A stretch of DNA of 64,000 nucleotides, taken from a virus. Positions within the stretch are counted from its first letter, which is position 1, and the number at the start of each line of letters is the position of its first letter. The translations under genes and the position numbers were made by a program. The DNA lies in IMG/VR virus record IMGVR_UViG_3300037560_000207, positions 96,001-160,000 of that record, one strand, 5' to 3'. Positions 35,591 through 53,120 of the stretch are shown here, piece by piece. The notes under the pieces are model-generated. The model made no database searches, was not told the DNA's origin, and saw only the letters and a program-made list of their open reading frames with translations.

Positions 35591-36747
35591 GGCAATTTGG
35601 AACCAATGAAATCTCTTTTATTCAAGCTCGTGCTTGTGAACGTATTACAGAAATACTTGATGCGATAGGATGTGATTATATAGAACGCCATGATTATCTT
35701 CAAAGTGCCTGTCCAGTCCATGAAGGGGATAATCAAAGAGCGATGTTTTGGGCTATTAGGTCTAACCATTGGCAATGCAAAACAAGAGGATGCCATTGTG
35801 ATGTTATTAGCGGACCATCATCTAGTGTTTTTGGTCTTGTACGTGGAACCATGACTCATAAGACAGGTAAAAAATGGAGTTTTCCGCAAACTGTTAATTT
35901 TGTAGCTCAAATATTGGGATTAGAGAAGTGCCATATGGATGGAACTACTGTTCAAGATATGGAAATAGCTAAAATCATCAGACAACACAAGAAAAAACAA
36001 TCTGTTACTCAAGGGCGAGGCACATTATTAGCAACAATGATTCCACACTTAAAATCAGATCAGGTTTATTACCCAAATCGAGGTATTTCACCTGAGATTA
36101 TTGCCAGATATCACATATCATTTTGTAATATCAAAGGTAAACCAATGTATAAACGAGCATTCTTTCCGGTTCTTGATGTAACTGGACGATATATAGTGGG
36201 ATGGTCTGGAAGAAGTATTTACGATAAATGTCCCAAATGCAAAATGCATCACCATCCAAAACGATTGTCATGTCCTGATCCTGAATATCGTGGTATATAT
36301 AGTAAATGGAAACATTCTGAAAATTTTCATGTGGAATTGTGTCTTTATAATCTTTGGTATGCTAAGCCCTTTATCAATAGAACTGGCACAGCAATTTTGT
36401 GTGAAGGGCCTGGAGATATATGGAATTTAGAAACAGCGGGTATTCGAAATAGCGTAGCCGTATTGGGTTCAAGTATATCTCGTCAACAACGATTAATGTT
36501 ACAAAATGCCGGGGCCTTGACAGTTGTACTTATCTTTGATAACGACGAAGCAGGGAGGAAAATAACCGAAAGACTAGAAAAGGATTTGATACATTATTTC
36601 AGAATATTCTGTATTACGCCCGATACCGCAAAAGATGTTGGTGATATGCTTACTAATGATATTGTTACAAAAATTGGTCCCATCTTACAACAAGCATCTA
36701 GAGCAGAAATGCTTTCAGATGATTATGGAACAAAAAAGGAAACCTAA
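35587..36747 (+). CDS. dnaG: DnaG-type DNA primase
   Basis: CPVH.GDN..C..C Zn finger, FP.....G..VG..GR, CEGPGD, FDNDEAG, KD.GD (TOPRIM). Confidence 0.88.
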   Translation: MRQFGTNEISFIQARACERITEILDAIGCDYIERHDYLQSACPVHEGDNQRAMFWAIRSNHWQCKTRGCHCDVISGPSSSVFGLVRGTMTHKTGKKWSFPQTVNFVAQILGLEKCHMDGTTVQDMEIAKIIRQHKKKQSVTQGRGTLLATMIPHLKSDQVYYPNRGISPEIIARYHISFCNIKGKPMYKRAFFPVLDVTGRYIVGWSGRSIYDKCPKCKMHHHPKRLSCPDPEYRGIYSKWKHSENFHVELCLYNLWYAKPFINRTGTAILCEGPGDIWNLETAGIRNSVAVLGSSISRQQRLMLQNAGALTVVLIFDNDEAGRKITERLEKDLIHYFRIFCITPDTAKDVGDMLTNDIVTKIGPILQQASRAEMLSDDYGTKKET

Positions 36748-37181
36748 TGGATAAAAAAGATACAAATCCTAAAGATAGAATAGCGACTACTAGATTGGAT
36801 TTAAGTTTGTTTCCAGCAACAGCCAAAGCATATGGTGCTTTAGCAATGACTGAAGGTGATTTGAAATACGGTGGTTATAATTATAGAACTATTGGAGTTA
36901 AAGCTTCGATTTACTATGCAGCAGCAAATCGTCATTTAGATAAATGGTTTAATGGTGAATGGACTGATCAAAAAACTGGAGTTCCTCATTTAGCAAATGC
37001 TTTAGCATGTATTGGTGTACTTATTGATGCAATAGAGTGTGGAAAACTAAATGATGATCGTCCACCAAAATGTAATGTGGCTGTTTTGTTAGATAATATG
37101 GAACATAAAGTAGCTCATCTTCAGAAATTATTTACTGACGGACCAAATCGTCATACAGAAATAATTAAGGCACAGAAATAA
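36747..37181 (+). CDS. dATP/dGTP diphosphohydrolase-domain protein (DUF5664-like)
   Basis: A..EG..KYG.YN.R..GV..S.YY.A..RHL..W..GE..D..TG.PHLA.A.AC...L.D. Confidence 0.75.
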   Translation: MDKKDTNPKDRIATTRLDLSLFPATAKAYGALAMTEGDLKYGGYNYRTIGVKASIYYAAANRHLDKWFNGEWTDQKTGVPHLANALACIGVLIDAIECGKLNDDRPPKCNVAVLLDNMEHKVAHLQKLFTDGPNRHTEIIKAQK

Positions 37182-37197
37182 TTAGGAAATAAAGGTT

Positions 37198-38136
37198 ATG
37201 CGAATAGTTAAATCTAGTGCAAGCTCAATTAATCTGTATCGCCATTGTCCTTTCAGTTATTATTTACAATATATTTTAGGTATGGAATCGAAAGCTGGCA
37301 AAGCTGCACTTCAGGGAAATATTGTTCACAAAGTTTTACAATTTATGGCCAGACGAAAGAAAAGAGGAAAAAGGGATATTGACCCGATGCAGCTTTTGGA
37401 TTGGGCTTGGGATAAACTTACTATAAAATCTCCAGAAATAGAAATCCGTAAAGTAACGACCAGGATAGATAAAGAAACTGATGACTTCAAAGAAGCTGCT
37501 GATTTTAAGAAATGTCGTGTTGCACTTGAAACTGTATTAGCTGATGTTTTTTATAACCCATACAATCTCAAAGTACTAGATACAGAAGAATGGTTTGCCT
37601 TGGAAATGCCAGGAAATGAATGGAAAAGTTTAAATCAAGATGGAAAAATGCATCAATTCGCTATACGCGGTTATATTGATCTTGTACATGAAATTGATGA
37701 AGAAACTATAGAAATTGTTGATTGGAAAACTGGGAAAAGAACGAGCTTTTATACACAAAAACCAATCGATGAAGAAGTATTGATGAGAGAAATCCAACCA
37801 CGACTTTATCATTTAGCAGCATATTTTCTATATCCAAAATATAAGAATATCTTGATTACTTTCTACTATACGAATGATTCTGGCCCAATCACCATAGCCC
37901 TATCTCAAGATGACTTGATAATAACTATTACAGCTCTCCATCGTTTTTTTACCACAGTTAAGAAAGATACATTGATACGCAGAAATAGAAGTTGGCAATG
38001 TAAAATGTGCTCATTTGAACGTAGCGGTATGTGTCATCGAGTTTGGTCTGATCTTTGTACGATGGGAAGTGAATATATTGAAAATCGTTATGCCCAGCTT
38101 GATTATAAAGATCAATTGGCGATAGGGAAACCATGA
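37198..38136 (+). CDS. PD-(D/E)XK nuclease, RecB/Cas4-like
   Basis: S.S.I..Y..CP..Y, GNIVH, GYIDL, IVDWKTG, Q..LY, C..C.F....C. Confidence 0.82.
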   Translation: MRIVKSSASSINLYRHCPFSYYLQYILGMESKAGKAALQGNIVHKVLQFMARRKKRGKRDIDPMQLLDWAWDKLTIKSPEIEIRKVTTRIDKETDDFKEAADFKKCRVALETVLADVFYNPYNLKVLDTEEWFALEMPGNEWKSLNQDGKMHQFAIRGYIDLVHEIDEETIEIVDWKTGKRTSFYTQKPIDEEVLMREIQPRLYHLAAYFLYPKYKNILITFYYTNDSGPITIALSQDDLIITITALHRFFTTVKKDTLIRRNRSWQCKMCSFERSGMCHRVWSDLCTMGSEYIENRYAQLDYKDQLAIGKP

Positions 38137-38441
38137 AATTAACCTATGGACAACGAAAAGCTCTGAAATTTCTTCGAGATGATGAAGAATATGGAGATAT
38201 GGTCCATGAACCGGGAAGTGGTTGGTGGTTAGGAACTCATAAAATAAATGGTAAATTAGCATTAAGTTTAATACGATTATGTCTAGTAACCAGAGAACAA
38301 TGGAGTAATTCCAGTAAATATGAACGATGGGGAATCAACGGAACTGGTCTTAGAGCTTTGGATGGTAAACCTCCTTACACCAAGGCAGATGGTACATATG
38401 TGGACAATTTACACGAAGTTGGAGACATATATAATGAGTAA
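38133..38441 (+). CDS. hypothetical protein
   Basis: ATGA coupling. Confidence 0.5.
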   Translation: MKLTYGQRKALKFLRDDEEYGDMVHEPGSGWWLGTHKINGKLALSLIRLCLVTREQWSNSSKYERWGINGTGLRALDGKPPYTKADGTYVDNLHEVGDIYNE

Positions 38442-40791
38442 GAAAACTTATATTCCTCTTCACGTACATTCGTACTACTCATTATTGGACGGACTTTGTT
38501 CTCCAAAAGATATCATTGATCGGTGTGTAGAACTAGAATTGCCAGCTTGCGCCGTCACGGACCATGGTACCATAGCATCGATGAAAGTATTTTATGATGC
38601 TGCTAAGAAAAAGAAGATTAAGCCTATCATCGGATGTGAATTATACATTTGTGAACAAGACCCTACTATAAAAAACAATACAAATAACAAACGACATCAT
38701 TTAATTGTTTTAGCAAAGAATGATCAAGGTATTAAAGATTTAATGTCATTGGTATCGGAGACCAATAAACCTGAATATTTTTATCGTAAACCACGAATTC
38801 ATTTGGAAGGTATTGCTCCATTTGCTAAGCAAGGTAATCTAATCTTTTTAACAGCATGTATCGCTGGACAATTACCAATGTCATTATTCACTGATTTTAA
38901 AGCAGCTATCATGGCAGGAAGAAATTATAATATTGCTGGGGCAAAAGAATATCTAAAACCTAATTGGAAAGAAGTTGGTAAGGAGATTATCTATAAACAT
39001 TTAGCTATTTTTGGAGAAGGTAACTTTTTTCTTGAACTTCAAGATGAAGGTATGGGAATTCAGGCTGTTGTGGTAGAATGCCTAAGAGAACTCAGCATAG
39101 AAACTGGAGTACCAACAGTAGCTACAATTGATGCTCATTATTGTCGAAAAGAAGATGCTGAAGATCAGAGACTTCTTCTGTTTGCTCAGCTTCACACAAC
39201 AAAAGAGGCTCAAGACTATAAAATAGCTAGTGGTTTAGATGTTATGGATTTCTTCATCTCAGACAACTATTATATCCCTTCTAATGAAGAAATGCGACAG
39301 AAATTTACTGAGAATGAGCTTAAAACCACCCTTGACATAGCAGATCAAATTGAATATTCGTCATTGGGACATTCACCTTATTTGCCTATCTTTACTAATG
39401 ATGAAGCAAAAAAGCTCGGACTTGATTCAAATGATTATCTGAGATATCTTTGTATAGAAGGTGCTAAAAAGAAATTGACACATCTTGATCCAGCGCAAAA
39501 GAAATTATATTGGAAGAGATTACAAAGAGAACTTATCGTAATTCAAGAAGCAGGATTAGCTGATTATTTTTTGATTGTTTGGGATGTATGTCGATTTGTG
39601 GATGAAAAGAATGGACCAAGGGGTAAGGGAAGAGGTTCTGGCGCTGGTTCACTGGTAAATTACCTTACTGGAATTACCGGCATTGATCCTATCGAATATG
39701 GATTATACTTTGAAAGATTTTATAATTCAGGCCGTAATATTCTACCCCATTTTGATGTCGGGCAAATGGATTTTATGGCATGGATGTCAGATAATTTTGA
39801 ATTACTTCATACCCGCGATATAGATAATGAACGCAAGTTTGTGTCCAGACATTTAGCCGGACGGATAAAGCAGAATAAGGGGGGATGTTATGAATTTACA
39901 TTCACAGATATAATGCGAGAAGAAGTTGAATGGATTGATGAAAATAATTCTCGTATGTGGATGTACTTATATGATATGATTCAAGAAAAGCCAGCAGCTA
40001 ATCCTTCAAATTCTCATCTTGCATATGGTCTTGGTATGACATTGGCAGGTCCAGATGAATTAGATATAAATCGTAAAGTTAAAACACATAAGGGTCATAT
40101 TAGTCTTCCCGATATTGATACAGATATAGGAGTGGTTTTTCGTAATGAAGTAATTACTTACCTCAAAAAACGATGGGGAGATGAATATGTAGCTCAAATG
40201 ATCACATTTGGTAGACTTCAAGGTAAAGCGGCTCTTAAAGAAGTATTTCGTGCTCAACCAGATACCGTAAGACATTTAATGAGAGTCAAGGCTGTCAAAG
40301 AAGGAAAAGATGCGGATGATATTCACATGACTCCACATGATCTGTGTAATGATATTACACAATATATTCCAGATGAAGCATCAATTGCTGATGAATTGAG
40401 GCAAGCGCGATTAGAACAAGGAGATGACTATGGAATTCTACAATGGGCGATTCATCATACAGAACAAGTGCGAGATGCATATGAGTGGTATAAGCCATTA
40501 TTTGATCAAGCCATGAGAATCGAAGGAACTAAAAAATCTCAATCGAAACATGCTGCTGGTGTGGTAATTGCTGATAGACCAATCGAGGAATTAGTACCAT
40601 TGGTTTATGATGCAAAGAATAAAGATCGTGTTGTTGGTTTAGAAATGTATAATGCTGAAGATATGGGTGCTGTAAAATTTGATTTTCTTGGTGTAGTAGC
40701 GCTGGATAAATTATGGATGGCTCAGGATTTGATTAATAATTGTAATAACGAGGAAGTGTTAAAAGAGGGATTAGTAGAGGTAATAGAATGA
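38434..40791 (+). CDS. dnaE: DNA polymerase III alpha subunit, N-terminal half (PHP + palm/thumb)
   Basis: LHVHSYYSLLDG, TDHG, DAHY, GRGSGAGSLV, FERF, PDIDTD, HAAGVVI, VKFDFLG; ends shortly after KFDFLG. Confidence 0.92.
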   Translation: MSKKTYIPLHVHSYYSLLDGLCSPKDIIDRCVELELPACAVTDHGTIASMKVFYDAAKKKKIKPIIGCELYICEQDPTIKNNTNNKRHHLIVLAKNDQGIKDLMSLVSETNKPEYFYRKPRIHLEGIAPFAKQGNLIFLTACIAGQLPMSLFTDFKAAIMAGRNYNIAGAKEYLKPNWKEVGKEIIYKHLAIFGEGNFFLELQDEGMGIQAVVVECLRELSIETGVPTVATIDAHYCRKEDAEDQRLLLFAQLHTTKEAQDYKIASGLDVMDFFISDNYYIPSNEEMRQKFTENELKTTLDIADQIEYSSLGHSPYLPIFTNDEAKKLGLDSNDYLRYLCIEGAKKKLTHLDPAQKKLYWKRLQRELIVIQEAGLADYFLIVWDVCRFVDEKNGPRGKGRGSGAGSLVNYLTGITGIDPIEYGLYFERFYNSGRNILPHFDVGQMDFMAWMSDNFELLHTRDIDNERKFVSRHLAGRIKQNKGGCYEFTFTDIMREEVEWIDENNSRMWMYLYDMIQEKPAANPSNSHLAYGLGMTLAGPDELDINRKVKTHKGHISLPDIDTDIGVVFRNEVITYLKKRWGDEYVAQMITFGRLQGKAALKEVFRAQPDTVRHLMRVKAVKEGKDADDIHMTPHDLCNDITQYIPDEASIADELRQARLEQGDDYGILQWAIHHTEQVRDAYEWYKPLFDQAMRIEGTKKSQSKHAAGVVIADRPIEELVPLVYDAKNKDRVVGLEMYNAEDMGAVKFDFLGVVALDKLWMAQDLINNCNNEEVLKEGLVEVIE

Positions 40792-41363
40792 ATCGTATTT
40801 TTCTAGATGTTGGTTCCCATCATGGACAAACAATAGAATTCATGTTACAACCACGATTCAAGATAGATTGCATTTTCGGATTTGATCCATCACCATTGTG
40901 CCATGATATTCTGGAACGAAAATTCAGAGCTAATCCGAAAGTTACTATAGTTAAAGCTGGACTGTGGTCTAAGACATGTGAAATGGACCTACATAACGAA
41001 GGTAGTCAAGGGGGTAGTGTCTACGAAGACTATCAGACAACATGTAATCCAGAACCTCGTATCACCCACTGCAAATTCATTAAGGCTTCGGACTGGTTTA
41101 TTGAGTATGTGTCTTCAGATGATGAAGTATTTTTGAAAATTAATGCAGAAGGAAGTGAATGTGAGATCGTTTTAGATTTATTAGATTCTGGTGAATATAA
41201 TAAAGTTAAAGCACTGCTGATAGATTTCGATATCCGTAAGAGTCCATCTCAGAAACACAAAGAAGATGAATTAAGAGAACGAATGAAGGCGATGGGTATC
41301 AATAATCTTCATATCTATATGGGTGATAATCGACATATTATTCTATTCTCTGTTGTGCGATAA
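40788..41363 (+). CDS. FkbM-family methyltransferase
   Basis: FLDVGSHHG, FDP, LKINAEGSE. Confidence 0.85.
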   Translation: MNRIFLDVGSHHGQTIEFMLQPRFKIDCIFGFDPSPLCHDILERKFRANPKVTIVKAGLWSKTCEMDLHNEGSQGGSVYEDYQTTCNPEPRITHCKFIKASDWFIEYVSSDDEVFLKINAEGSECEIVLDLLDSGEYNKVKALLIDFDIRKSPSQKHKEDELRERMKAMGINNLHIYMGDNRHIILFSVVR

Positions 41364-41372
41364 AGGAAAATA

Positions 41373-42122
41373 ATGACAAAACCTAAGATATGGATTTACT
41401 GGGATCATCCATTGGGACAAACAGAAACACCGGCTTACATACAATTATGTTGGGAGACTATCAAAAAGTATTGTGGCACAGACTTTGATATTCATTTAGT
41501 AACTACTGAAAATGTGAGACAATTTTTGCCTAATATATCTGAGAGTTTTTTCCACATTGCACAGATCAATAATAAATCAAATTTTTTACGATATACATTA
41601 TTGAAAGAACATGGCGGCATCTGGCTAGATAGTGACTTGATTTTGTTTCAAAGCCTAAAACCAATGCTTGACTTATTAGAAGATGACATTGATCTGGTGG
41701 CAACTGCTTCTCCAACACTTAAGTACGGAGAACCTGAATGTGGATTTTTACTATCAACAAAAGGTGGAACAGTAATAACCAAAGCTGTTTCTATCATTGA
41801 GTATGCTTTGAGCCTTCAAAAACCAGGACATATTTTTAAATGGGGATCATTGGGGCCAAGAACGATTCGCCAAGCCGTAAAAGGTCGTAGATATCATCAT
41901 CTCGATTATCGTTTATTAATGCCTATTCCATCATGGGAAGCTTATCGATTCGGTGGCAAAGAATCAATGGGAAAATGCTGTATTGAAGGATCATATGGTT
42001 GTATGCTTTTCCATGAAATGTTTAAACAATATAACCATCCAATTCTACGAATGAATCGTCAACAATTACTTGAATCACCAATCCTCTTAGGGAAGATGTT
42101 CAGAAAGGCAGTTACAAGCTGA
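41373..42122 (+). CDS. DXD glycosyltransferase (capsular polysaccharide synthesis/GT32-like)
   Basis: IWIYW...P.YI.LC, SNFLRY.LL..HGGIWLDSD, WG.LGP. Confidence 0.85.
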   Translation: MTKPKIWIYWDHPLGQTETPAYIQLCWETIKKYCGTDFDIHLVTTENVRQFLPNISESFFHIAQINNKSNFLRYTLLKEHGGIWLDSDLILFQSLKPMLDLLEDDIDLVATASPTLKYGEPECGFLLSTKGGTVITKAVSIIEYALSLQKPGHIFKWGSLGPRTIRQAVKGRRYHHLDYRLLMPIPSWEAYRFGGKESMGKCCIEGSYGCMLFHEMFKQYNHPILRMNRQQLLESPILLGKMFRKAVTS

Positions 42123-43072
42123 TGAAGATTAGAGCGACAATAGTACATATATCTACTCCGCTGAGAATGCGACCAATTGTTGCAACACTAATAAGGCATG
42201 GGCATGTATTCACTGACCAAAAGATTCCAGATGCCGATTTGTGGCTGGTTGATTGTATGCATCCTCACAAGATAGATGATGCCACTATTGAAGAATTGAT
42301 TCAATTTCGTGGACAAATCATGCTTGTATCTCTCGGTGATTGGAGTTCATTCAACACGCAAATGGAGGGTAAAGGTCTTCCTGATGAAGTAATCGATAAA
42401 GTGGTAGCATTTGCAAAAATTCAATGGACTCTTGAGATTACCGATTATGATCCTCGCATTATAGGCAAACAGATTATAATGCAACCATTTTTAATTAGTG
42501 GTCTCCCAGAACCGATGACCAGCAAAAAGCCTATAGCATCATTCTATGGATTACCAACTGGTGATCTAGAAACAGAAAAAAATCTACGCATTAGGGCTTG
42601 TCGAATACTGAAAAATAAATCATGGTTCCAAGGTGGTATTGTAGGACAGGAACCTGGTGCGCAACGAAACATATCAGGGGTTGAAATTGGACATAGACCT
42701 CGCCCATTCTATCTTAATTCTATTAACCAATCACTTGTGTCATTATGTATGCCTGGAAACAGTATCTTGACTTATCGTCATTTCGAAAGTATGGGGATGA
42801 AATCATGCGTTGTTTCCTGTTGTCTAAATCAATTCAGATGGTTAAATCGCATGGTTCCAGGACAGCACTATTTGGATATTTTACCAGATTTATCTAATCT
42901 GCTAGATGTTTGTGAACAGGCTATTTCTGACAAAAAGACCACGTTGCAAATCGCACAGAAGGGATATGATTTGTATCAAGCGTACTATCGTCTATTACCA
43001 GACGGTAGTATGACAGATGCAATGTGGGCTGACATTACACAACAGTGGAAACAAATGGGGATACAGATATAA
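42122..43072 (+). CDS. glycosyltransferase-like protein (GT-B C-terminal domain)
   Basis: SLCMPG...YRHFE.M, PG.HY....PDLS.L, IAQ.G. Confidence 0.55.
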   Translation: MKIRATIVHISTPLRMRPIVATLIRHGHVFTDQKIPDADLWLVDCMHPHKIDDATIEELIQFRGQIMLVSLGDWSSFNTQMEGKGLPDEVIDKVVAFAKIQWTLEITDYDPRIIGKQIIMQPFLISGLPEPMTSKKPIASFYGLPTGDLETEKNLRIRACRILKNKSWFQGGIVGQEPGAQRNISGVEIGHRPRPFYLNSINQSLVSLCMPGNSILTYRHFESMGMKSCVVSCCLNQFRWLNRMVPGQHYLDILPDLSNLLDVCEQAISDKKTTLQIAQKGYDLYQAYYRLLPDGSMTDAMWADITQQWKQMGIQI

Positions 43073-43904
43073 TGTATGATGAAAGTAAAATGTGCTTTAT
43101 GACAGTAGCCAATGAATTATACCAGGAATATATACCGTGGTTTCTATATTTTTTAGATATGGCATATCCCAAAGCACACAAACTCATACTATTAGATGGC
43201 ATAATTACAGATGATGTAAAACAGGTATTATCATCAATATCTGGTAATTTTAAAATTAAAGAGCAGGCATTTCCCGAATATACAAAAACTGATGCTAAAA
43301 CCATTAAGTGTTTAAGATGGCTAGTATATGAGCCTGAGTTTAATCAATACGATTGCCTATCAATTGGCGACATTGATATGGCAATTTGAAAGAATCCCCA
43401 TCTTATATGCAACAACATTTGACACATTGTGATTTACTCAATATACCTTACAGTAATTGCATTCGCGCAGATTCTAAACCTAAACGAATGTGCGGAATAC
43501 ATATTGTTAAACCACGGGAATGGTTTAAGGCAATGAGACCAATTATTGATAAATATCGTCCAATGCTCAAAGCCGGTGAAATAAAATTATCATCAATAGG
43601 ATTCAACGAAATATTATTATTGCGTATGATAATAGAATCAAATCTTGGTGAACCACCACCCAACTTATCTCCAACTTATTGGTCTTCTATGGTTACATCA
43701 CATCATCATGGAATTCATCTTCAATTGGCTCAACACTCAATTGATAAATTTAAAAAATCCAAAGGATATACCAAACGAAAATCAGAATTTCTTGCTGCTT
43801 GTCGAACTGACTTATTCAATGAATTACGAATACAATCACCTAAAATTGGTTCAGTGCTAAATTCGATCGCTAAATCTTACGACCCTAAAGGAGCTATCAA
43901 ATGA
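43072..43904 (+). pseudogene. GT-A-like glycosyltransferase split by a 1-nt frameshift
   Basis: IGDIDMAI* at 43389 continues as LKESPSYMQQH..PYSN..R...R.CG.H in the -1 frame; ATT-TGA versus ATT-TTG. Confidence 0.6.
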
Positions 43905-44614
43905 ATGGAATATTTTATGTTGCTTTTGGTAAACAATATGACTATCAATGCACTCATTCAGTTATTTTGGTAAGAAAGTATAGTGATATTCCAGTTAGGG
44001 TAATAACCGACCTTGCTGTTGACCAAAGGTGTAAAAAATGGGATAATGTATCGAACGTATCTTTTGAAAAAGTGAATGCTGAACGAAATAAAAATAGATA
44101 TTACAAAATTCGACCAGATTTATTCTCGCCGTTTGATATCACACTGTTCTGCGATACTGACACCGCTGTTCAGTCAGCAGAATTTTTAGATGGATTTGCC
44201 ATAGCACAAAATCATGATGTAATGTTTTCTGTCTATCAACGAATTGGGAAGGGTGGGCATGGTCTGCCTATGGTGTGGTTATATGGGAAGTTTATGAAAC
44301 CAGAAAACTATCCGGCAACTATCTATAAGGAAGGCGTTTTCTTTTTCCGTAAAACCGAGAATACTAGAAAATTGTTTGAGGCATGGGAGAATTACTGGAG
44401 ATTACTTGGTTGTGGGCGAGATATGCCGGCATTGTTTCCTGCGACAACAAAAGCAACAAATTTGAATCTTGGCATTTTACCCCCAGGTTGGGACAATAGA
44501 GATGGACATATTATAGTTCATGCGTTTGGTAACTATAAAACGAAAGGTCTGCCGATCATTACCAAATATAAACCTGATGACAAGAACCAAAATAAATGGA
44601 GGGATATAAAATGA
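43901..44614 (+). CDS. GT-A (GT8-like) glycosyltransferase
   Basis: YVAFG, SPFD.TLFCDTD (DxD), GVFFF..T, DM.AL. Confidence 0.7.
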   Translation: MNGIFYVAFGKQYDYQCTHSVILVRKYSDIPVRVITDLAVDQRCKKWDNVSNVSFEKVNAERNKNRYYKIRPDLFSPFDITLFCDTDTAVQSAEFLDGFAIAQNHDVMFSVYQRIGKGGHGLPMVWLYGKFMKPENYPATIYKEGVFFFRKTENTRKLFEAWENYWRLLGCGRDMPALFPATTKATNLNLGILPPGWDNRDGHIIVHAFGNYKTKGLPIITKYKPDDKNQNKWRDIK

Positions 44615-45240
44615 ATCAACTTCATCTCAGTAGGTGTAACCGTTATTTGTTTTTTGCAGAGAATGTTCTTCCGAAGAAACCAATCTTTATTGATGTTGGA
44701 TCAAGAACTGGTATTCATGCCATTGCTCTTCTAGAAAAATTCAAAAGTTTAATTATTGTTTATGAGGCATGTGCGAAAAACTATCATACTTTGTGTCAAG
44801 CTGTATCTGGATCAACAATTGTTACTCATCAATCAGCCGTGACCGGAAAAGATGGTGAAATTGATTTCTTTAGATTTGCTAGTGCATCTTCCAACAGTAT
44901 TTATCCAAGACATCAGAAAGAAGTAGGCATGAAATTACAACAGCAGACTAAAGTTAAATCGGTTAGTATAGAATCTATATTGACAGCAAACGATCTTTCT
45001 CACATAGATATTCTATTTTGTAATTGTGAAGGTGCAGAACTTGGAATAATAAACGAAATTTTGAGCAAACCCCATTTACGAAATCGATTGGGGCAACTTT
45101 GTATTTCTTTTCACGGTGAAAGAATTTATCCACAAGCACAAACAGTTAATGCTATTGAAAAAATGTCTGTATATTTTTTGGTAATTACAGAGAACAACGA
45201 TTATCCATGTCATCTATTCGTCAATAAAAATCTTGTGTAA
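44611..45240 (+). CDS. FkbM-family methyltransferase
   Basis: FIDVGSRTG, YEA, ILF.NCEGAE. Confidence 0.8.
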   Translation: MNQLHLSRCNRYLFFAENVLPKKPIFIDVGSRTGIHAIALLEKFKSLIIVYEACAKNYHTLCQAVSGSTIVTHQSAVTGKDGEIDFFRFASASSNSIYPRHQKEVGMKLQQQTKVKSVSIESILTANDLSHIDILFCNCEGAELGIINEILSKPHLRNRLGQLCISFHGERIYPQAQTVNAIEKMSVYFLVITENNDYPCHLFVNKNLV

Positions 45241-45270
45241 GTAATAGATTATTCTAAAAAGGAATGGAAA

Positions 45271-45867
45271 ATGGTTAAGTCTCGTTATATTGTACGAAAT
45301 GATCCGACAGTAAATTCTGTTGGACGGCATAGTCTTCCTATAAAATCAAGATGGAGTCGTCCATATGAATATAAATTTGCCATGATATGGGCAAAGCCTG
45401 GACTTCGGATGGTAGATGCCGCATCTGGTGGTGGAACACATCCATTCTGCCATTACTTAGCAGATATTGCACCAGGATTAGTTATTGCCGTAGATCAAAC
45501 TATATGGTCTGTTGAAGAAAATTCAGGTCTTGTATATCATCAAACTTCAATGACGAATATACCACTAGATCAAAACTCGGTGGATATAGTGTTTAGTATT
45601 TCGGTTATAGAACATTGTACGAACGAAGTAATCAAGAATTTCTTTGCCGAAACTACAAGAATTCTGAAAACTGGAGGGCTGTTCATTATTACACAAAATA
45701 CGGGTTCTGTATATCCAGGCAGAACACCATCATGGTCAGCACAAGAACTTAGCAAAGCTGGATTCTTTTATGAACAACTTACAAAAAGTAATAATATACC
45801 AGATGATGCAATTACAAAATATCAGCCGCCAAGATGGTGTTATCGTTGGGCATGTAAAAAACTCTAG
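45271..45867 (+). CDS. class I SAM-dependent methyltransferase
   Basis: VDAASGGG, AVD, SVDIVFSISVIEH, RILK.GG.FI. Confidence 0.85.
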   Translation: MVKSRYIVRNDPTVNSVGRHSLPIKSRWSRPYEYKFAMIWAKPGLRMVDAASGGGTHPFCHYLADIAPGLVIAVDQTIWSVEENSGLVYHQTSMTNIPLDQNSVDIVFSISVIEHCTNEVIKNFFAETTRILKTGGLFIITQNTGSVYPGRTPSWSAQELSKAGFFYEQLTKSNNIPDDAITKYQPPRWCYRWACKKL

Positions 45868-45898
45868 TAAAACAATATGATTGATTTGGAGGTATAAT
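45868..45898 (+). promoter_or_regulatory. class-1-like promoter for the dnaE C-half
   Basis: TAAAAC-N17-GGTATAAT; ATG lies 7 nt after the -10 element. Confidence 0.5.
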
Positions 45899-45904
45899 AG
45901 GATA

Positions 45905-48496
45905 ATGATCGAGTTCGTGAATTGTGAATGTAAAGTCGAAAAGGGTGAATTCAATATCAACAATATCCCTCTTAATTGTCCTGCTGTATGGCGACTTATC
46001 GGGGGTGGTCATACAGTTGGAATTTTTCAACTTGAGACAAAATTAGGTCAAGATTGGGCTGCAAAGGTACGACCTGATAGTATTGAGGAATTAGCTGCCT
46101 TAGTGAGTCTTCTTCGACCCGGACCATTAGAATGTCTCAGTGGTGATACACATATTACAAAAGGAAGATTTTTTGATAAAAGGGTAAATAAATATAAATT
46201 TTCCTATGTAATCATGAAAGATTTATATGAAAAATTTTTATTTTGGGAAAAATCAAAACATAAAGGAAAAGCACAAAAAGGATTATCAATATTATCGGTA
46301 AATGAAGATACTAGGAAAATATTCAAAAATACCATTAAAAAAGTGATAAAAACCGGTACGCAAAAGGTTTATAAATTAAAACTAAAACTTACATTGTCAC
46401 GATATAATTATAATAGAAAACGATTTTATACAATAAAAGCCACAGACGGACATAGATTTTTAACACAAAACGGCTGGAAAGAACTCTGGGAATTATGTTC
46501 CGGTGATTACATAGCTGTTATCAACCAAAATTTTGGACGCATTGATAGAAAAGATAGAATGGCAATTGAGGGATTAAAGATTTTTAGAGATATTTGTTTA
46601 TTCAATTATCAATATAAATGCCTTTTCTGTAATTGGAATTTGGGAACATTAGATGTAAATCATATAAATGGAAATAGATATACTGACAATAGCCCAGATA
46701 ATCTATGTTTTTTATGCCCAAATCACCATAGAATGTATACAGAAGGAATGATAACACAGGATGACATATTACAAAAATTACCTGATGTAACGTTGCCCAA
46801 CAAAAATGACATAAGATGGGTTTTATATGAAGGGAAAGAAGATTGTGGTGAAGAAGAAACATATGATATTGCTGTCGATGGTCCATTCCAGAATTATATA
46901 GCGTCAAGTGTTATCGTACATAATTCAGGTATGTCACAAGATTATGCTGATATTAAATTTGGTCGCAAAAAACATTCCTATTTACATTCATCTTTAAAGT
47001 CAATTTTAGAATCAACTTATGGCTGTATGGTATTTCAAGAACAAGCGCTGCGCATTGCTACTGATGTGGCTGGATTTAATCCTATAGAGGCAGATACACT
47101 TCGAGCCGCAATCGGAAAGAAAAAGGCTGAACTTATGGCCAAATTAAAACCAAAATTTATTAAAGGATGTCAAAATCATAGTAAAATTGGTAGAGGTATA
47201 GCTGAAGAAATTTTTGGCTGGATTGAAAAATGTCAGCGCTACTCGTTTAATAAAAGTCACGCTTTAAGTTATGGGATGATTGCTTATCAAACCGCTTGGC
47301 TAAAATGTCATTTTCCACATGAATTTTTCACTAGTTATCTGACCTACTCTCAATATAAAGGTGACCCAAAAGAAGAAATTTATAAATTGGTACAGGATGC
47401 CAGATTATTTGGTGTTGATATTTTTCCCCCAGATATTCGGCGTGGTAATATTCACTTTCAAATGATTGAAGAACCTCAAAAAGGCGTAGCATTCGGTCTG
47501 GCGCATGTTAGGGGTGTCGGGGCTTCAGCAATCCAAAAGATCGTCTCAGCAGTCACGGAAACGTCAGAAATAAGCTCTCTGGAGACTTGGGGTAACTTTC
47601 TTTCAGCGGTTCCCGATTTTCATAGAGATGTAGGTATTGCTTTAATTAAATCCGGTGCTTGTGATTGTTATAATATGCAACGTAGTGAAATGGTGCGCGA
47701 ACTTGAAGTAGTATTAGGAACTACTGTCCATGATGAGACCGGAAAAAGAGTTGAAGCTAAAGGGTTGACAAATAAAGAGAAGCTTTACTTTTTCGAACAA
47801 CTCCGAAAGGACGAAATGACCACTAGAGACATTTTGTTACAAATGGCCCAACCTCCAGGAAACAAAACAAAGACTATAAGCCAAATGAATAAACAAGAAT
47901 TGGTAATAGCAGCCGTCGAATATCTTGATCAAGTTGCCGTTGCTTTTGATGGGGTGGTATATACTCCTGATGATTTAAAAAGCCAGACCAAAAAAGAAAT
48001 TGAGGAATTGATGCTACAAAATGGTTATAAGAATGTAGTAATCAAACCCCCATGTTCAAGTGATACCAGACGCAAAAAAGTAGCATCCAAAGCGGAAATG
48101 TTAGAAAATCCATTAGAAGATACTAATAGAGTAAGTTCTGTGGCAGAAAAGCATTTCTTAGGTATTGCTTTATCGTGTTCCCCGGCTGATGATGCAGATG
48201 ATAGTTTTGCAACCCATACTTGTTTAGAAATTGCCAAAGCATCAAACAATGAAGCTATTGCTGTTTGCGCAATTATTGATAATGTTAAATATACAAAAAC
48301 CAAGCGTGGACGTAATCCAGGTCAATCAATGTGCTTTTTAACGATGTCGGATTCTACTTACTCAATTGACGCTGTAGTATTTCCTGATGCATTTGAACGA
48401 TTAAAGGCATTTTGCAAAAATGATTTAATTTGTTTGATATATGGGGATAAGAAAAAAGGCAGTTTTATAATACGTGATATTCAAAAGTTAATTTAA
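45905..48496 (+). CDS. dnaE: DNA polymerase III alpha subunit, C-terminal half (fingers, HhH, OB) with intein
   Basis: G.T.GIFQLE, RPGP, YG.MVFQEQ, AD.LR.AIGKKK, FNKSHA..Y, AWLK.HFP, PDI, M.FL..SD.T..ID.VVFP. Confidence 0.92.
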   Translation: MIEFVNCECKVEKGEFNINNIPLNCPAVWRLIGGGHTVGIFQLETKLGQDWAAKVRPDSIEELAALVSLLRPGPLECLSGDTHITKGRFFDKRVNKYKFSYVIMKDLYEKFLFWEKSKHKGKAQKGLSILSVNEDTRKIFKNTIKKVIKTGTQKVYKLKLKLTLSRYNYNRKRFYTIKATDGHRFLTQNGWKELWELCSGDYIAVINQNFGRIDRKDRMAIEGLKIFRDICLFNYQYKCLFCNWNLGTLDVNHINGNRYTDNSPDNLCFLCPNHHRMYTEGMITQDDILQKLPDVTLPNKNDIRWVLYEGKEDCGEEETYDIAVDGPFQNYIASSVIVHNSGMSQDYADIKFGRKKHSYLHSSLKSILESTYGCMVFQEQALRIATDVAGFNPIEADTLRAAIGKKKAELMAKLKPKFIKGCQNHSKIGRGIAEEIFGWIEKCQRYSFNKSHALSYGMIAYQTAWLKCHFPHEFFTSYLTYSQYKGDPKEEIYKLVQDARLFGVDIFPPDIRRGNIHFQMIEEPQKGVAFGLAHVRGVGASAIQKIVSAVTETSEISSLETWGNFLSAVPDFHRDVGIALIKSGACDCYNMQRSEMVRELEVVLGTTVHDETGKRVEAKGLTNKEKLYFFEQLRKDEMTTRDILLQMAQPPGNKTKTISQMNKQELVIAAVEYLDQVAVAFDGVVYTPDDLKSQTKKEIEELMLQNGYKNVVIKPPCSSDTRRKKVASKAEMLENPLEDTNRVSSVAEKHFLGIALSCSPADDADDSFATHTCLEIAKASNNEAIAVCAIIDNVKYTKTKRGRNPGQSMCFLTMSDSTYSIDAVVFPDAFERLKAFCKNDLICLIYGDKKKGSFIIRDIQKLI
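46133..46924 (+). mobile_element. intein with HNH endonuclease in the dnaE C-half (264 aa)
   Basis: RPGPLE|CLSGDT...TYDIAV....NYIA..VIVHN|SGM; internal CLFC..DVNHING....N...NL..LCPNHH. Confidence 0.9.
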
Positions 48497-48497
48497 A

Positions 48498-49133
48498 ATG
48501 CCAAAATTAATTGATTTGATTGGGAAAAAATTTGGAAGACTCGTTGTCTTGGAACGGGTTGAAAATAGCAAAAATAAACAAACTAGATGGTTATGCCAAT
48601 GCAATTGTAAGGATGAAAATGAGATAATTGTTCAAGGTGGTAATCTCAAAAATAGTAATACCCAAAGTTGTGGATGTCTATCGAAAAATAATGCTTTGAA
48701 ACATGGCCATCGTAATGATGAAATTTATACGATATGGTCAGCAATGATTCAACGTTGTACTAATCCTAATAATAAAGATTACAAAAATTATGGCGGACGA
48801 GGAATTACGGTTTACGAACGATGGATGGAACCCGAAAATTTTATTAAAGATATGATAAAGAAAAGGGAGCCTGGGCTTACACTCGAACGAATAGATAATA
48901 AACTAGGATATTCTAAAGATAATTGTGAATGGACCATCTATGAAAAACAAAATAGAAATAAACGAAATAATCGTTACGAAACATATAAAGGAAAACGATG
49001 GCTTTTTATAGAATTATGTAAAGAATATAATGCGCCTTATCACATTGTCTATAATAGGTATTATAGACTCGACTGGACTTTAGAAGAAGCCCTTATGATA
49101 CCAGTAAAAAAATATAAAAAAAAAGAAAAATAA
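48498..49133 (+). CDS. free-standing HNH-like homing endonuclease, family A copy 7
   Basis: Family motifs (TLERIDNKLGY..NCEW); directly follows the dnaE C-half. Confidence 0.8.
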   Translation: MPKLIDLIGKKFGRLVVLERVENSKNKQTRWLCQCNCKDENEIIVQGGNLKNSNTQSCGCLSKNNALKHGHRNDEIYTIWSAMIQRCTNPNNKDYKNYGGRGITVYERWMEPENFIKDMIKKREPGLTLERIDNKLGYSKDNCEWTIYEKQNRNKRNNRYETYKGKRWLFIELCKEYNAPYHIVYNRYYRLDWTLEEALMIPVKKYKKKEK

Positions 49134-49145
49134 TCGACATTTAGC

Positions 49146-49174
49146 GGAACAAATATATAGGTTGGGCGTACAAT
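49146..49174 (+). promoter_or_regulatory. class-1 (ECF-like) promoter
   Basis: GGAAC-N16-CGTACAAT. Confidence 0.65.
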
Positions 49175-49188
49175 AAGATAACCACATT

Positions 49189-49608
49189 ATGTGGCTCTCA
49201 AAAAGGAACAGTAAAATGATTGATATAATTACGAAAAAACAAGTATGTGTAGAACATAATAATATAAATCTTTCTGTACAGCAAGTTAGTGTTGTTTGTT
49301 CCTTATTAGATAAAAATAATATATCATATCATTTAGAGGATGATGCCATTTCAATAGATAGGGGACCAGAAATGACTAACATTACTATCCATAATAATAA
49401 AGATTCGATTTTTGTTCAAAAACTTTTGAATGAACAAAAAGAAGACAAAAATAAATTACCACAAATAATAATACAAGGCAAACAAATTGGTTTTGGTCGT
49501 AGGGCAATAATTGATAGAGCTATTGATATAATATTAACTGATTCTAAAGATATTGATTGGCAAAAACATGATTTATCAATTCAGATTATTATTAAGATGG
49601 AGAAATAA
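49189..49608 (+). CDS. hypothetical protein
   Basis: ORF downstream of the promoter. Confidence 0.55.
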   Translation: MWLSKRNSKMIDIITKKQVCVEHNNINLSVQQVSVVCSLLDKNNISYHLEDDAISIDRGPEMTNITIHNNKDSIFVQKLLNEQKEDKNKLPQIIIQGKQIGFGRRAIIDRAIDIILTDSKDIDWQKHDLSIQIIIKMEK

Positions 49609-49950
49609 ATGGATAGTATATTTTGTAATGCAAAACCAGGTGATATAGTATATGATATTCCACAACCACCAATGTTACGGATACCAGAAAAGTTTTTTTT
49701 GAAACTTAATTCTAAAAGACAAGTGATAGCAATCAATGCAGCAGATAAGGAAATTGATTTTAATCCTGAAAAATTCTGCGAAACCCTAGAAAGGGCTAGA
49801 ATCACTGCCGAACAACTATGGTGGAAATGGTTGTCGCAGAATAACAAAATAGCCTTTCTCGCTATTCAATGTCACCAATCTGGAAAATATCCAGAATTAA
49901 AACCTATGCAACAAACAGAACAATCTGAAGTAGTAAAATGTAAAGAATAA
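49609..49950 (+). CDS. hypothetical protein
   Basis: GGAG SD. Confidence 0.55.
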   Translation: MDSIFCNAKPGDIVYDIPQPPMLRIPEKFFLKLNSKRQVIAINAADKEIDFNPEKFCETLERARITAEQLWWKWLSQNNKIAFLAIQCHQSGKYPELKPMQQTEQSEVVKCKE

Positions 49951-49982
49951 TAAAAGTTTTTGAATTTGAAAGGCGAACAAAA

Positions 49983-50402
49983 ATGGCAGAATTAAGTGTA
50001 TTTGGTGTTGGCGTAGCAACAGCAGACCCTGAATTGAGGTATGTTGGACAGAACAAAACAGCATTATGTACTGTCAACCTAGCTTTCAATCGGAGTTTCC
50101 GTGACAAGGAACAAAATTGGCAGACAGAAGCTTGTTTTTTAAGGGCTCAGGTCTGGGGTAATCGGGCCGAGAAAATGGCCGAACTCGTCAAAAAGGGTCA
50201 GCCAATTTATGTTAGTGGTTATATGAAACAGGATTCGTGGGAAAATGACGATGGCCAGAAAAGAGTCTCGTATTCATTAAGTGTCCGAGACTTCCAACTG
50301 TGCGCCAAAAATGGAAAGAATAAGGATGAGGCGAAGAAAACAAATAAGGCTGAAACATCAGAACCCCCTCCGATGGAAAATGATGAATCGATACCATTCT
50401 GA
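49983..50402 (+). CDS. ssb: single-stranded DNA-binding protein
   Basis: DPELRY, LAFNR, VWG.RAE....KG..IYV.G...Q.SW; acidic tail ending DESIPF. Confidence 0.92.
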   Translation: MAELSVFGVGVATADPELRYVGQNKTALCTVNLAFNRSFRDKEQNWQTEACFLRAQVWGNRAEKMAELVKKGQPIYVSGYMKQDSWENDDGQKRVSYSLSVRDFQLCAKNGKNKDEAKKTNKAETSEPPPMENDESIPF

Positions 50403-50827: not shown

Positions 50828-51421
50828 ATGAACTATGGACAGTCGCTAGATAGATTTATCACCTATTTAGCACGGAATATTGCGACTGTTTATCCTAGTA
50901 ATTGCGCTGGTGAAGAAGACTATATCCAAGTAGGGCATTTAAAATTAGCTGAGATTCACAGGGATGAACAGGAAAAACATATTAATCATCTTGGGGCATA
51001 TGCCATTATCGCAATAGCTCGTGCTATGAGGTATGCTGCTATAGAAGCAATGTATGCCGTATCTGCTTCACACAGAATTAAAAAACAAGTCCATAGAATT
51101 GAAATGCTTTTAATTACTGGCAAGACAGAACAAGAAATATGTCAAGAATTAGAAATTACTAAAAATAAATTAGCAAGTTTACGATCATTAATTAATACCG
51201 AATCCTGGCATAGACTATTTGAAGAACCAACACAAAGTCTAGGGTCATTTTTTGTACCTGATGATATTTTATCGTCTGACTATTTGACGGAAGAAGATAA
51301 GATTTTTATACAAGCACAATTAGAAGATACTATTGGAGATTTGGGATTGAGTCGAAAACAACAATGGTTGCGGACAAAGAGTCTTCGTCCAAAATTGATA
51401 CGGAGTGGTTATGGAATCTAA
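50828..51421 (+). CDS. sigma-70-like factor (region 2/3, FliA/SigB-like)
   Basis: EDYIQ.G...L, .AYA...I...M, T..EI..EL.I HTH. Confidence 0.6.
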   Translation: MNYGQSLDRFITYLARNIATVYPSNCAGEEDYIQVGHLKLAEIHRDEQEKHINHLGAYAIIAIARAMRYAAIEAMYAVSASHRIKKQVHRIEMLLITGKTEQEICQELEITKNKLASLRSLINTESWHRLFEEPTQSLGSFFVPDDILSSDYLTEEDKIFIQAQLEDTIGDLGLSRKQQWLRTKSLRPKLIRSGYGI

Positions 51422-53120
51422 TAGTAAACGTCGTATTTTATTTACAGGAGAGGCTTCTTTTTTAGCTACTGGGTTTAGTACTTATATAAATGAAGTAATG
51501 AAAAGACTACATGCAACTGGCGAGTTCGAACTTGCGGAACAAGGATCATACGCTCATGATGATGATCTACGTTGTCAACAAGTACCATGGAAATTCTACC
51601 CAGTTGCTCCTGCTCGTAGTAATCAACAAGCTATGCAAAAATACGCTTCTAGACCAACAAATCAATTTGGTGAAGATAAATTTACTGATGTATGTTTAGA
51701 TTTCAAACCAGATATTGTTATATCTATAACAGATTGGTGGATGTCTGAGTATGTTGAAAGATCACCATTGAGACCTAATTTTTCCTGGGTTCAAATGCCA
51801 ACAATTGACGGTGAACCACAAAAGCCAGTCTGGTTAGATACATATAAGCGATCAGATGGAATTTTAACATATTCAGATTATGGTATGAATTTACTCAAAA
51901 AGACCGGTAGACGTGGTACAAAACTTATTACAAAAGCATCCCCTGGTGTTGATCTTGAAACATTTAAGCCGCCAGATGACAAAAGAGCACATAAGACAAG
52001 ATTAGGAATTGACCCAAATTCTTTGATTGTTGGTATGACTGCTAGAAACCAAAAACGAAAATTGTACTATGACTTAATAGAAGCATTTTCGATGTGGCTT
52101 CATCAATCTAAAACTAAGGGACATTTAGAATTAGCAAAAAAGACATTTCTTTATCTTCATACTAGTTATCCAGACGTAGGATATGATATCGGTAAAGCAA
52201 TCCGAGATTTTAAAGTTAGTAACAAAGTTATTATGACATATCTATGTAATAATTGTCAAACTGCTTATCCATCATTTTTTGCTGGTGAATTAACAATTTG
52301 TCGTAAATGTGGTAAACTTGCAGCCCATCCACCAAATGCTAATCATTCATGTCCGCGCAATGTATTAGCAGATATTATGAAAACATTCGATCTTTATGTT
52401 CAATATTCCATATGTGAGGGTTCAGGTATGCCTCCAGTTGAAGCAATGTGCTGCGGGGTTCCAGTAATGGCTGTAGATTATTCTGCTATGCATGATTATT
52501 TTGATTGCCCGACAGCCATTCCGATTAGAGTACAACGTTTTTTCTGGGAAGCGATCATAGAGACGGAACAAAAACGAGCGCTTCCAGACAATATGGATTT
52601 TGTTAATAAATTAGATAGATTTTTGAAACAAAACGAATCTAAACGAATTGAAAAATCACAACAGACCAGAAATTATGCCGAAGAATTAATTGAAACTTAT
52701 GGTCAAGACCAAAAGATGCCAAGATATAGCTGGGATAGAACAGCAGCTATCTGGGGACAAGTTCTTCGTGAAACTAAAATCAAAGATCAACAAACAACTT
52801 GGCTTTGTCCAACTTCTCGTGTACATAATCCTATCTTGACTCCACCCAGCAATGATATGAATAATAGTGAATTTGTTAACTGGGTAATTGGTAAAATATG
52901 GAATCGACCGGATATGCTTCGTACACATTTTGCAGGTGAATGGCTCAAGTCACTGAATAGTGGTTCTAAAACAGTTGGTGATAAGCGAATACCGTTTGGT
53001 CGTAAAGAATTTGTGGATCATTTTATGGGAATGATACAGCAATCAAATGTGATAGAAGAGAAAAGGTTGGCGATTTTGAATCGTAAAACTTCAGACGCAG
53101 TAAAAGTGACGGTGATATAA
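51411..53120 (+). CDS. GT4 glycosyltransferase with Zn-ribbon insertion
   Basis: ILF.GE, PDIV...D.W, VG..ARNQ.RK, FDLYV..S..EG.G.P.VEAM.CG.P; CNNC..CRKC insert. Confidence 0.85.
   Translation: MESNSKRRILFTGEASFLATGFSTYINEVMKRLHATGEFELAEQGSYAHDDDLRCQQVPWKFYPVAPARSNQQAMQKYASRPTNQFGEDKFTDVCLDFKPDIVISITDWWMSEYVERSPLRPNFSWVQMPTIDGEPQKPVWLDTYKRSDGILTYSDYGMNLLKKTGRRGTKLITKASPGVDLETFKPPDDKRAHKTRLGIDPNSLIVGMTARNQKRKLYYDLIEAFSMWLHQSKTKGHLELAKKTFLYLHTSYPDVGYDIGKAIRDFKVSNKVIMTYLCNNCQTAYPSFFAGELTICRKCGKLAAHPPNANHSCPRNVLADIMKTFDLYVQYSICEGSGMPPVEAMCCGVPVMAVDYSAMHDYFDCPTAIPIRVQRFFWEAIIETEQKRALPDNMDFVNKLDRFLKQNESKRIEKSQQTRNYAEELIETYGQDQKMPRYSWDRTAAIWGQVLRETKIKDQQTTWLCPTSRVHNPILTPPSNDMNNSEFVNWVIGKIWNRPDMLRTHFAGEWLKSLNSGSKTVGDKRIPFGRKEFVDHFMGMIQQSNVIEEKRLAILNRKTSDAVKVTVI

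Follow-up and report, generated by a model that had tools for sequence, protein, structure and literature searches.

The replicative DNA polymerase DnaE of cyanobacteria is encoded by two genes, DnaE-N and DnaE-C, which are located far apart and whose products are joined by intein trans-splicing, with the break directly ahead of FNKSH, a motif of the fingers. The nrdA gene of phage Aeh1 is reportedly split by the homing endonuclease gene mobE, a finding that is said to go back to Friedrich et al. in 2007. Here, two genes for a DnaE-type DNA polymerase III (Pol III) alpha subunit, also named DnaE-N and DnaE-C, were analyzed in a window of 64,000 nucleotides (nt). The window is the whole stretch of DNA examined and comprises positions 96,001-160,000 of the virus record IMGVR_UViG_3300037560_000207 (181,360 bp, complete with terminal repeats); all coordinates below are window positions. 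The two genes lie on the same strand, 5.1 kb apart, and are probably an old and fixed intein-less "gene in pieces", the products of which would assemble non-covalently. As in cyanobacteria, two genes encode one replicative DnaE. Unlike the cyanobacterial break, that of the phage occurs about 180 residues further upstream and lacks an intein, and a cis-splicing intein of the phage gene is inserted at a third site.

Split replicative polymerases that are joined by inteins are already known, as are phage genes that homing endonucleases have broken. The Aeh1 NrdA protein, split by mobE into NrdA-a and NrdA-b, was found to reassemble without splicing through tails that were born at the insertion (Crona et al., 2011; PMC3045599). 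The DnaE locus is similar to this case in that a replication-related essential enzyme of a large phage is encoded by two collinear genes in one operon, with no intein or intron and with new tails at the ends. Furthermore, a homing endonuclease is located in or beside the gap, which for DnaE applies to relatives and, directly downstream, to the window. In Aeh1 the function of NrdA is restored by protein-protein assembly, and by analogy the same may hold for DnaE. In contrast to NrdA, the DnaE split is ancient and fixed in a clade down to about 35% identity, its gap holds 1 to >10 kb of unrelated cargo, the tail of its N-half is dispensable and its new N-terminus carries an invariant Cys triad.

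Intein-less fractured genes have been discussed by Dassa et al. (2009; PMC2677866), where three fractured DnaE loci in environmental phage-like DNA were described to carry split inteins. Those loci resemble the present one, since replication genes including DnaE occur in two adjacent pieces in uncultured phage-like DNA, there with a free-standing endonuclease in between. They differ from the window, in which neither end has a Hint module and the cargo consists mostly of genes other than endonucleases. Phage polymerases split without an intein have been reported for gp43 of T4-related phages, according to a citation in PMC2677866, and for a chimallivirus (PMC13648687). These family-B and family-A enzymes are likewise composed of two chains without splicing, but they belong to unrelated families and have other break points. 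For T4-like jumbo phages a minimal split Pol III alpha was described (Iyer et al., 2021; PMC7824862). There, too, the C-family catalytic module is present as two stand-alone phage proteins. However, these have no PHP or other domains, are encoded by distant genes, are split inside the nucleotidyltransferase core and are found beside a family-B replicase, whereas the window encodes a complete DnaE as sole polymerase. In surveys of C-family polymerases, the DnaE variants mentioned are limited to intein-split and frameshifted ones (PMC3919608; PMC12926913), and no split C-family enzyme is mentioned in a survey of viral replication (PMC4889955). No description of this clade, or of a complete DnaE kept as two unspliced chains across a deep phage clade, was found in the literature.

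The two halves and their parts are as follows:
38434-40791, + strand: DnaE-N, 785 amino acids (aa; the open reading frame (ORF) opens at 38320), with PHP, palm, thumb, first finger helix and the three catalytic Asp
40741-40788, + strand: C-terminal tail of DnaE-N, 16 residues, acidic, past the last polymerase helix
45905-48496, + strand: DnaE-C, 863 aa including an intein (ORF opens at 45881), with fingers, (HhH)2 clamp-binding domain and OB fold
45905-45979, + strand: N-terminal head of DnaE-C with three invariant Cys (residues 7, 9 and 25)
46133-46924, + strand: cis-splicing intein of 264 aa with HNH homing endonuclease, in the fingers of DnaE-C after RPGPLE

DnaE-N was matched by the Pfam families PHP (E-value 8e-38) and DNA_pol3_alpha (2e-64), and its palm region could be aligned to the alpha subunits of E. 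coli and Thermus. In 26 aligned N-half relatives, the PHP ligands His10, His12, Asp19, His44, Glu69, His89, Cys142, Asp233 and His235 were found to be invariant or nearly so, and the catalytic residues Asp560, Asp562 and Asp750 as well as the motifs PDIDTD and KFDFLG were invariant. The AlphaFold2 (AF2) model of DnaE-N had a mean predicted local distance difference test (pLDDT) score of 87.9. DnaE-C was matched by DNA_pol3_finger (E-value 5e-42) and HHH_6 (4e-11), and the OB fold was found with an E-value of 4e-5, which is under the curated cut-off. The AF2 model for DnaE-C of an intein-less relative (P0127; pLDDT 88.5) matched Pol III alpha structures over about 620 columns (E-value 1e-22), and the finger motifs were invariant across 58 C-halves. 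When both halves were compared between the window and the related locus L002, the proportion of synonymous differences (pS) was 0.70-0.75 and hence saturated, that of nonsynonymous differences (pN) was 0.12-0.18, and the ratio of nonsynonymous to synonymous substitution rates (dN/dS) was below 0.1. Judged by these sequence comparisons, both halves are intact working genes under purifying selection. DnaE-N additionally contains a clade-specific insertion of about 105 residues just before PDIDTD (residues ~435-555; window 39736-40098), which was modelled as mostly helical, follows a degenerate PDIDTD copy and is missing from the shorter N-halves of deep split lineages.

In a search of the whole genome, no PolA, no PolB and no second DnaE could be detected, and the two-gene DnaE is the sole DNA polymerase of the phage. 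A DnaQ-type exonuclease and a beta clamp were not found in the genome either. Proofreading probably rests on the intact PHP site of DnaE-N, and processivity probably on host factors.

The break between the halves is located in a surface loop just after the first helix following the third catalytic Asp, about 20 residues past that Asp. DnaE-N ends 32 residues past KFDFLG, the motif of the third catalytic Asp, and DnaE-C begins 34 residues ahead of GIFQLE, which agrees with the positions given in a first-pass annotation of this DNA made from the sequence alone. DnaE-N could be aligned up to residue 574 of E. coli alpha (Thermus 637) and DnaE-C from residue 583 (Thermus 639), so the break is clean and no polymerase residues were lost. 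What the halves have in addition is the 16-residue acidic tail of DnaE-N and about 12 residues of DnaE-C ahead of the first shared strand. At 40788-40791, an ATGA is shared by the DnaE-N stop and the start of the following gene, as had been noticed before. DnaE-C starts 37 nt past the preceding stop with a GGAGG ahead of its start. Both the stop of the N-half and the Met start of the C-half (MIEF...) are conserved among relatives. A promoter of its own had been proposed for DnaE-C. This was not borne out by a promoter scan, which returned 42 promoter-like sites compared to 49 expected by chance, none of them on the + strand just upstream of 45905. In the accompanying terminator scan, too, the sites did not exceed the number expected from shuffled sequence.

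The two new ends were found to be conserved to a different extent. Among 120 relatives the N-tail ranges between 0 and 22 aa, is mostly acidic and variable in sequence, has no conserved first residue and is lacking in several cases; in the window, the last 13 residues of DnaE-N (773-785) were modelled with a pLDDT below 50 (AF2). In the head of DnaE-C, Cys7, Cys9 and Cys25 are invariant in all 58 aligned C-halves, and the head was modelled with a pLDDT above 90. This CxC...C pattern occurs in all split lineages including the deep ones, whereas in fused relatives the third Cys is replaced by Asp and the first two are missing. Cys340 and Cys386 of DnaE-N are also specific to split forms. A zinc site between a Cys of the N-tail and the C-head was considered as well and was rejected, since the tail Cys is not conserved. 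Papers on a zinc site of PolC gave no lead.

The same split was found in all close relatives. The 120 best DnaE-N relatives (50-83% identity) all have PHP and palm without the finger and HHH domains, and the 120 best DnaE-C relatives (47-77% identity) all have fingers and HHH without PHP and palm; in both searches, the sizes of full-length proteins were within the searched length range. A profile scan of IMG/VR resulted in 78 loci. Gap sizes were determined by tblastn mapping of both ends for distinct loci from IMG/VR and other sources:
gap of 0.9-1.1 kb: 18 distinct loci
gap of 2-4 kb: 3 distinct loci
gap of 5-10 kb: 11 distinct loci
gap of >9.5 kb: 8 distinct loci
fused DnaE: 6 distinct loci
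gap undeterminable: 17 distinct loci

Thus, the split is present in 40 loci for which the gap was measured or given a lower bound, and the 6 fused ones all have a tail identity of at most 34%. Among the IMG/VR loci the split is retained at identities as low as about 35%. A maximum-likelihood tree was calculated for the N-half region. In this tree, the 56 split rows and the fused ones are on opposite sides of a branch that has 100% support in the Shimodaira-Hasegawa-like approximate likelihood ratio test (SH-aLRT), which is consistent with a single origin of the split as far as sequences can tell. One very divergent locus, L081 (25% identity; it has the stop, but a C-half was not seen), groups with the fused forms on the tree and was put in neither class.

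No GenBank phage matched the region in a megablast search. The best tblastn matches of both halves to GenBank phages were below 40% identity, and in records matched by both halves (e.g., MT835750 and MT836517) the matches are adjacent, i.e., not split, so the split clade has no cultured relative. Among the GTDB genomes only L087 (54% identity), a 2.8-kb contig of a Phycisphaerales metagenome-assembled genome (MAG), and L088 (36%), from a Eubacteriales MAG, were found. The binning of the L087 contig with a MAG of the Planctomycetota is a weak hint to the host. Two IMG/VR contigs of 221 kb and 206 kb contain two distinct split-DnaE loci each (L050/L055 and L051/L054), which suggests either that the replication module is duplicated or that the assemblies are chimeric or concatenated.

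The gap in the window contains eight ORFs, which correspond to seven genes, all on the same strand:
40788-41363, + strand: cargo 1, FkbM-family methyltransferase (NCBIfam fkbM_fam, E-value 7.5e-12, above cut-off; phrog_8156)
41373-42122, + strand: cargo 2, DXD glycosyltransferase (Pfam Caps_synth and Gly_transf_sug, E-values 1e-13 and 3e-8)
42122-43072, + strand: cargo 3, probable GT-B-like glycosyltransferase, weakly supported (Pfam Glyco_trans_1_2, E-value 0.15)
43045-43904, + strand: cargo 4/5, one GT-A (GT8-like) nucleotide-sugar transferase gene in two ORFs (43045-43389 and 43386-43904)
43901-44614, + strand: cargo 6, conserved protein (78-80% identical in L002 and L014; dN/dS about 0.07)
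44596-45240, + strand: cargo 7, FkbM-family methyltransferase (NCBIfam fkbM_fam, E-value 3.8e-15; Pfam Methyltransf_21)
45271-45867, + strand: cargo 8, class I S-adenosylmethionine (SAM) methyltransferase (Pfam Methyltransf_11, E-value 1.6e-11)

The first-pass annotation had counted seven glyco-genes on one strand. With the two ORFs of cargo 4/5 taken as one gene, the genes are three glycosyltransferases (one of them frameshifted), three methyltransferases and one gene without a family, as no Pfam, PHROG or NCBIfam match was obtained for cargo 6. A homologue of cargo 2 is kept beside DnaE-C in most near relatives. For cargo 3, some of the Atlas neighbours carry PF13524, and the homologous region of L012 matched Glyco_trans_1_2 with an E-value of 3e-14. 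Cargo 4/5, assigned by its Atlas name and a TM-score of 0.6 to GT8 families, is broken by a 1-nt deletion near 43389 and is a single ORF of 275-284 aa in L002, L005 and L006. The deletion is identical in a second assembly and is either a real frameshift or a read-level error shared by both assemblies.

In relatives, the content of the gap was found to differ between lineages:
near clade (N-half identity about 61% or more): core DXD and GT-A genes beside DnaE-C; 0-7 kb of other genes added on the side of DnaE-N
L012: GT2, radical-SAM/methyltransferase, PfkB sugar kinase, further methyltransferases
L007 and L008: >10 kb with cupin, kinase-like, TylF, sulfotransferase, DegT aminotransferase, epimerase, PRA-PH
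clade at 54-59% identity: gap of about 1 kb holding nothing but genes for a Macro-domain protein and UDG
clade at 35-45% identity: small ORF and RNase_T/DnaQ exonuclease; sometimes ClpP and others

In view of these gene contents, the slot between the halves is a long-lived insertion hot spot. Homologues of the free-standing HNH endonuclease gene that follows DnaE-C in the window (48498-49133) abut the DnaE-N stop, inside the gap, in L008, L038, L017 and L012. The gap of the window itself contains no homing endonuclease gene; its free-standing HNH gene is the one directly after DnaE-C. Overall, homologues of this gene occupy varying places around DnaE in relatives. In the deep split lineages, the gaps of L049-L069 (e.g., L050, 11911-12832) hold a conserved protein of 82-97 aa without a family and a DnaQ-type exonuclease, and the resulting order in one operon is polymerase half, proofreader, polymerase half.

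The intein inside DnaE-C shows all expected signs of cis-splicing, i.e., Cys1, a TxxH block, a terminal His-Asn followed by Ser+1, and an HNH domain, and was matched by Pfam Intein_splicing (E-value 1.5e-14) and an HNH phrog. Its exact boundaries were obtained by BLASTP with the intein-less relative P0124, in which RPGPLE runs straight into the downstream extein. In relatives it occurs sporadically, at this same site. The intein is a mobile element in its own right and has no part in bridging the two genes. The first-pass annotation had overlooked this intein, while its statement that the junction itself has no intein motifs was corroborated, as described below.

These results are best explained by the fission of an ordinary polymerase gene. 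A full-length DnaE-type Pol III alpha would have been cut in a surface loop, which left PHP, palm and thumb on one chain and fingers, HhH and OB on the other. The two chains would associate non-covalently and rebuild one active site without an intein, an intron or a DNA rearrangement, while their genes would have stayed in one co-oriented and tightly packed operon and would be transcribed together. The slot opened by the break would then have taken up accessory and selfish genes that differ from lineage to lineage. The non-covalent heterodimer, one of two outcomes considered in the first-pass annotation, is the best remaining explanation; we infer it from the purifying selection on both halves and from their role as the sole polymerase. 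Several points weigh against this reading. The binding of the two chains and their joint activity are themselves inferred. The N-tail, which is variable, sometimes absent and predicted to be disordered, does not appear to be an obvious docking element, so the interface would have to rest on ordinary contacts between palm and fingers and perhaps on the Cys-rich head. In addition, the glycosyltransferase core adjoins DnaE-C in nearly every locus with at least 61% identity, i.e., the cargo is not random at short range.

The broken ends could also be relics of a split intein, which still splice in an atypical way or serve as a non-splicing docking clasp. The C-half of the near clade opens with a short hydrophobic strand ending in Asn-Cys, a faint echo of the last intein block with its +1 nucleophile, some N-tails begin with a Cys, and inteins and homing endonucleases are abundant in the genome. 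However, no match to the Pfam Hint/intein families was found over either broken end, even at E-values up to 10. The DnaE-N end has no TxxH block and no conserved Cys/Ser1, and the tail Cys is not conserved, with the tail itself missing in many relatives. At the start of DnaE-C no His-Asn is present, and the Asn before the first Cys is restricted to the near clade; at this position, deeper split lineages have Asp, Ala, Ser, Pro or Lys. With only 0-22 aa in the N-tail and 5-12 residues ahead of the first Cys of the head, both ends are far below the size of any Hint module, and this origin is regarded as very improbable. It is scarcely conceivable that the halves are joined at the level of nucleic acids, be it through a large intron, by translational bypass or because the cassette is excised in a programmed way. 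Nothing positive points to it beyond the collinear position of the halves on the same strand. A cmscan search with Rfam (E-value up to 1, window 36000-50000) gave no match, including none to a group I or group II intron core, the repeats flanking the cassette are just short imperfect chance matches without an att-like pair, and no joined form of DnaE was found among the contigs of the source run. Moreover, the gap consists of 1 to >10 kb of conserved, ordinary genes under purifying selection, and each half has its own conserved stop or Met start, so that removal of the gap from the RNA, the other outcome considered in the first-pass annotation, was abandoned. Equally remote is the idea that the split is a misassembly, or a decaying pseudogene in a phage that uses the host replicase. 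In a look-up of public runs, the sequence was listed for one DNA run, probably that of the source sample, and for no RNA run. The frameshifted cassette gene does indicate some local decay. The second assembly, made for the probable source run, contains one 15-kb contig over 40173-49000 that shows no difference and no joint, and the same split was found in more than 40 independent metagenome contigs from other samples; therefore, the split is not a misassembly, a possibility that had been raised beforehand. Strong purifying selection on both halves and the invariant catalytic residues speak against a pseudogene.

Finally, the cassette might be placed in the polymerase operon for its function, because its products act on newly made DNA, through glycosylation or methylation of bases coupled to replication, or because their expression is timed with replication. 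This idea is close to the first-pass annotation, in which a physical link between glycosylation and replication was put forward as an undescribed system. In its favor, the cassette is translationally coupled to DnaE-N and no convincing terminator was found in the gap, loci throughout the near clade retain cargo 2 and cargo 4/5 as a core immediately ahead of DnaE-C, and nucleotide-pool genes (PRA-PH, Nuc_deoxyrib_tr, DNMK and a MazZ-like gene) occur in or near the gaps of relatives. On the other hand, deeper lineages have a gap without sugar genes, three further GT1 genes are located outside the split, and one glycosyltransferase of the cassette is frameshifted in the window. The families found (FkbM, Caps_synth and GT8-like, in relatives also DegT, epimerase, sulfotransferase and TylF) are typical for glycan decoration and not for known DNA glycosylation. 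Known DNA-glycosylating phages need a ThyA-type pyrimidine hydroxymethylase. The genome encodes ThyX but no such enzyme, and this speaks against DNA glycosylation by the known routes. A functional placement is therefore considered unlikely. The sugar genes are the commonest tenants near the window and are not tied to the slot. Since the split is universal in the deep clade and the cargo differs by lineage, the link between glycosylation and replication looks incidental and was not sustained as a new system. Relatives that keep the split and vary the cargo are largely what the first-pass annotation itself had named as speaking against the link. Most likely, the cassette belongs to the wider glycan-decoration gene set of the genome and not to replication.

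A more far-reaching variant of the fission model is that the break is stabilized by a new clasp between the subunits, in which Cys7, Cys9 and Cys25 of DnaE-C together with Cys340 and Cys386 of DnaE-N bind a metal or lock the chains, and that the gap is a selected "cargo bay" which places accessory genes under the control of the replication operon. This variant, suggested by the conservation pattern, is possible but rather doubtful. If it holds true, the clade would be a natural model of an essential polymerase that survived fission.

If the halves assemble as proposed, the locus would provide a natural site between palm and fingers at which a C-family polymerase tolerates a split, a test case for the long-term tolerance of the fission of an essential enzyme, and an example of a fission scar that turned into a hot spot of gene gain. 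In annotation, labels such as truncated or pseudogene should be avoided for half-length "DNA polymerase III alpha" genes of this kind. The glycosylation genes are worth studying within the glycan-decoration set of the phage and not as replication factors.

The replication module containing the split gene spans about 30-56 kb of the window on the + strand. Besides the two halves and the cassette, the following genes were annotated in this region:
30577, + strand: RecA
33503, + strand: DnaB
35530, + strand: Toprim primase
36747-37181, + strand: protein with the N-terminal domain of a MazZ-like dATP/dGTP diphosphohydrolase
37198, + strand: PD-(D/E)XK nuclease
48498-49133, + strand: free-standing HNH homing endonuclease, which begins 2 nt past the DnaE-C stop (phrog_374, E-value 2.6e-65)
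49983, + strand: SSB
51405-55321, + strand: three GT1 glycosyltransferases, beyond the split locus

The MazZ-like gene led to the idea of a Z-genome, which was dismissed after PurZ was not found in the genome; in relatives, a dNMP kinase occupies the position of this gene. The thymidylate synthase ThyX is encoded at 14731-15558, and the genome has no enzyme of the ThyA family. The second intein of the window, of the LAGLIDADG type, was identified at about 22264-23361 in the large subunit of ribonucleotide reductase (21421-24348).

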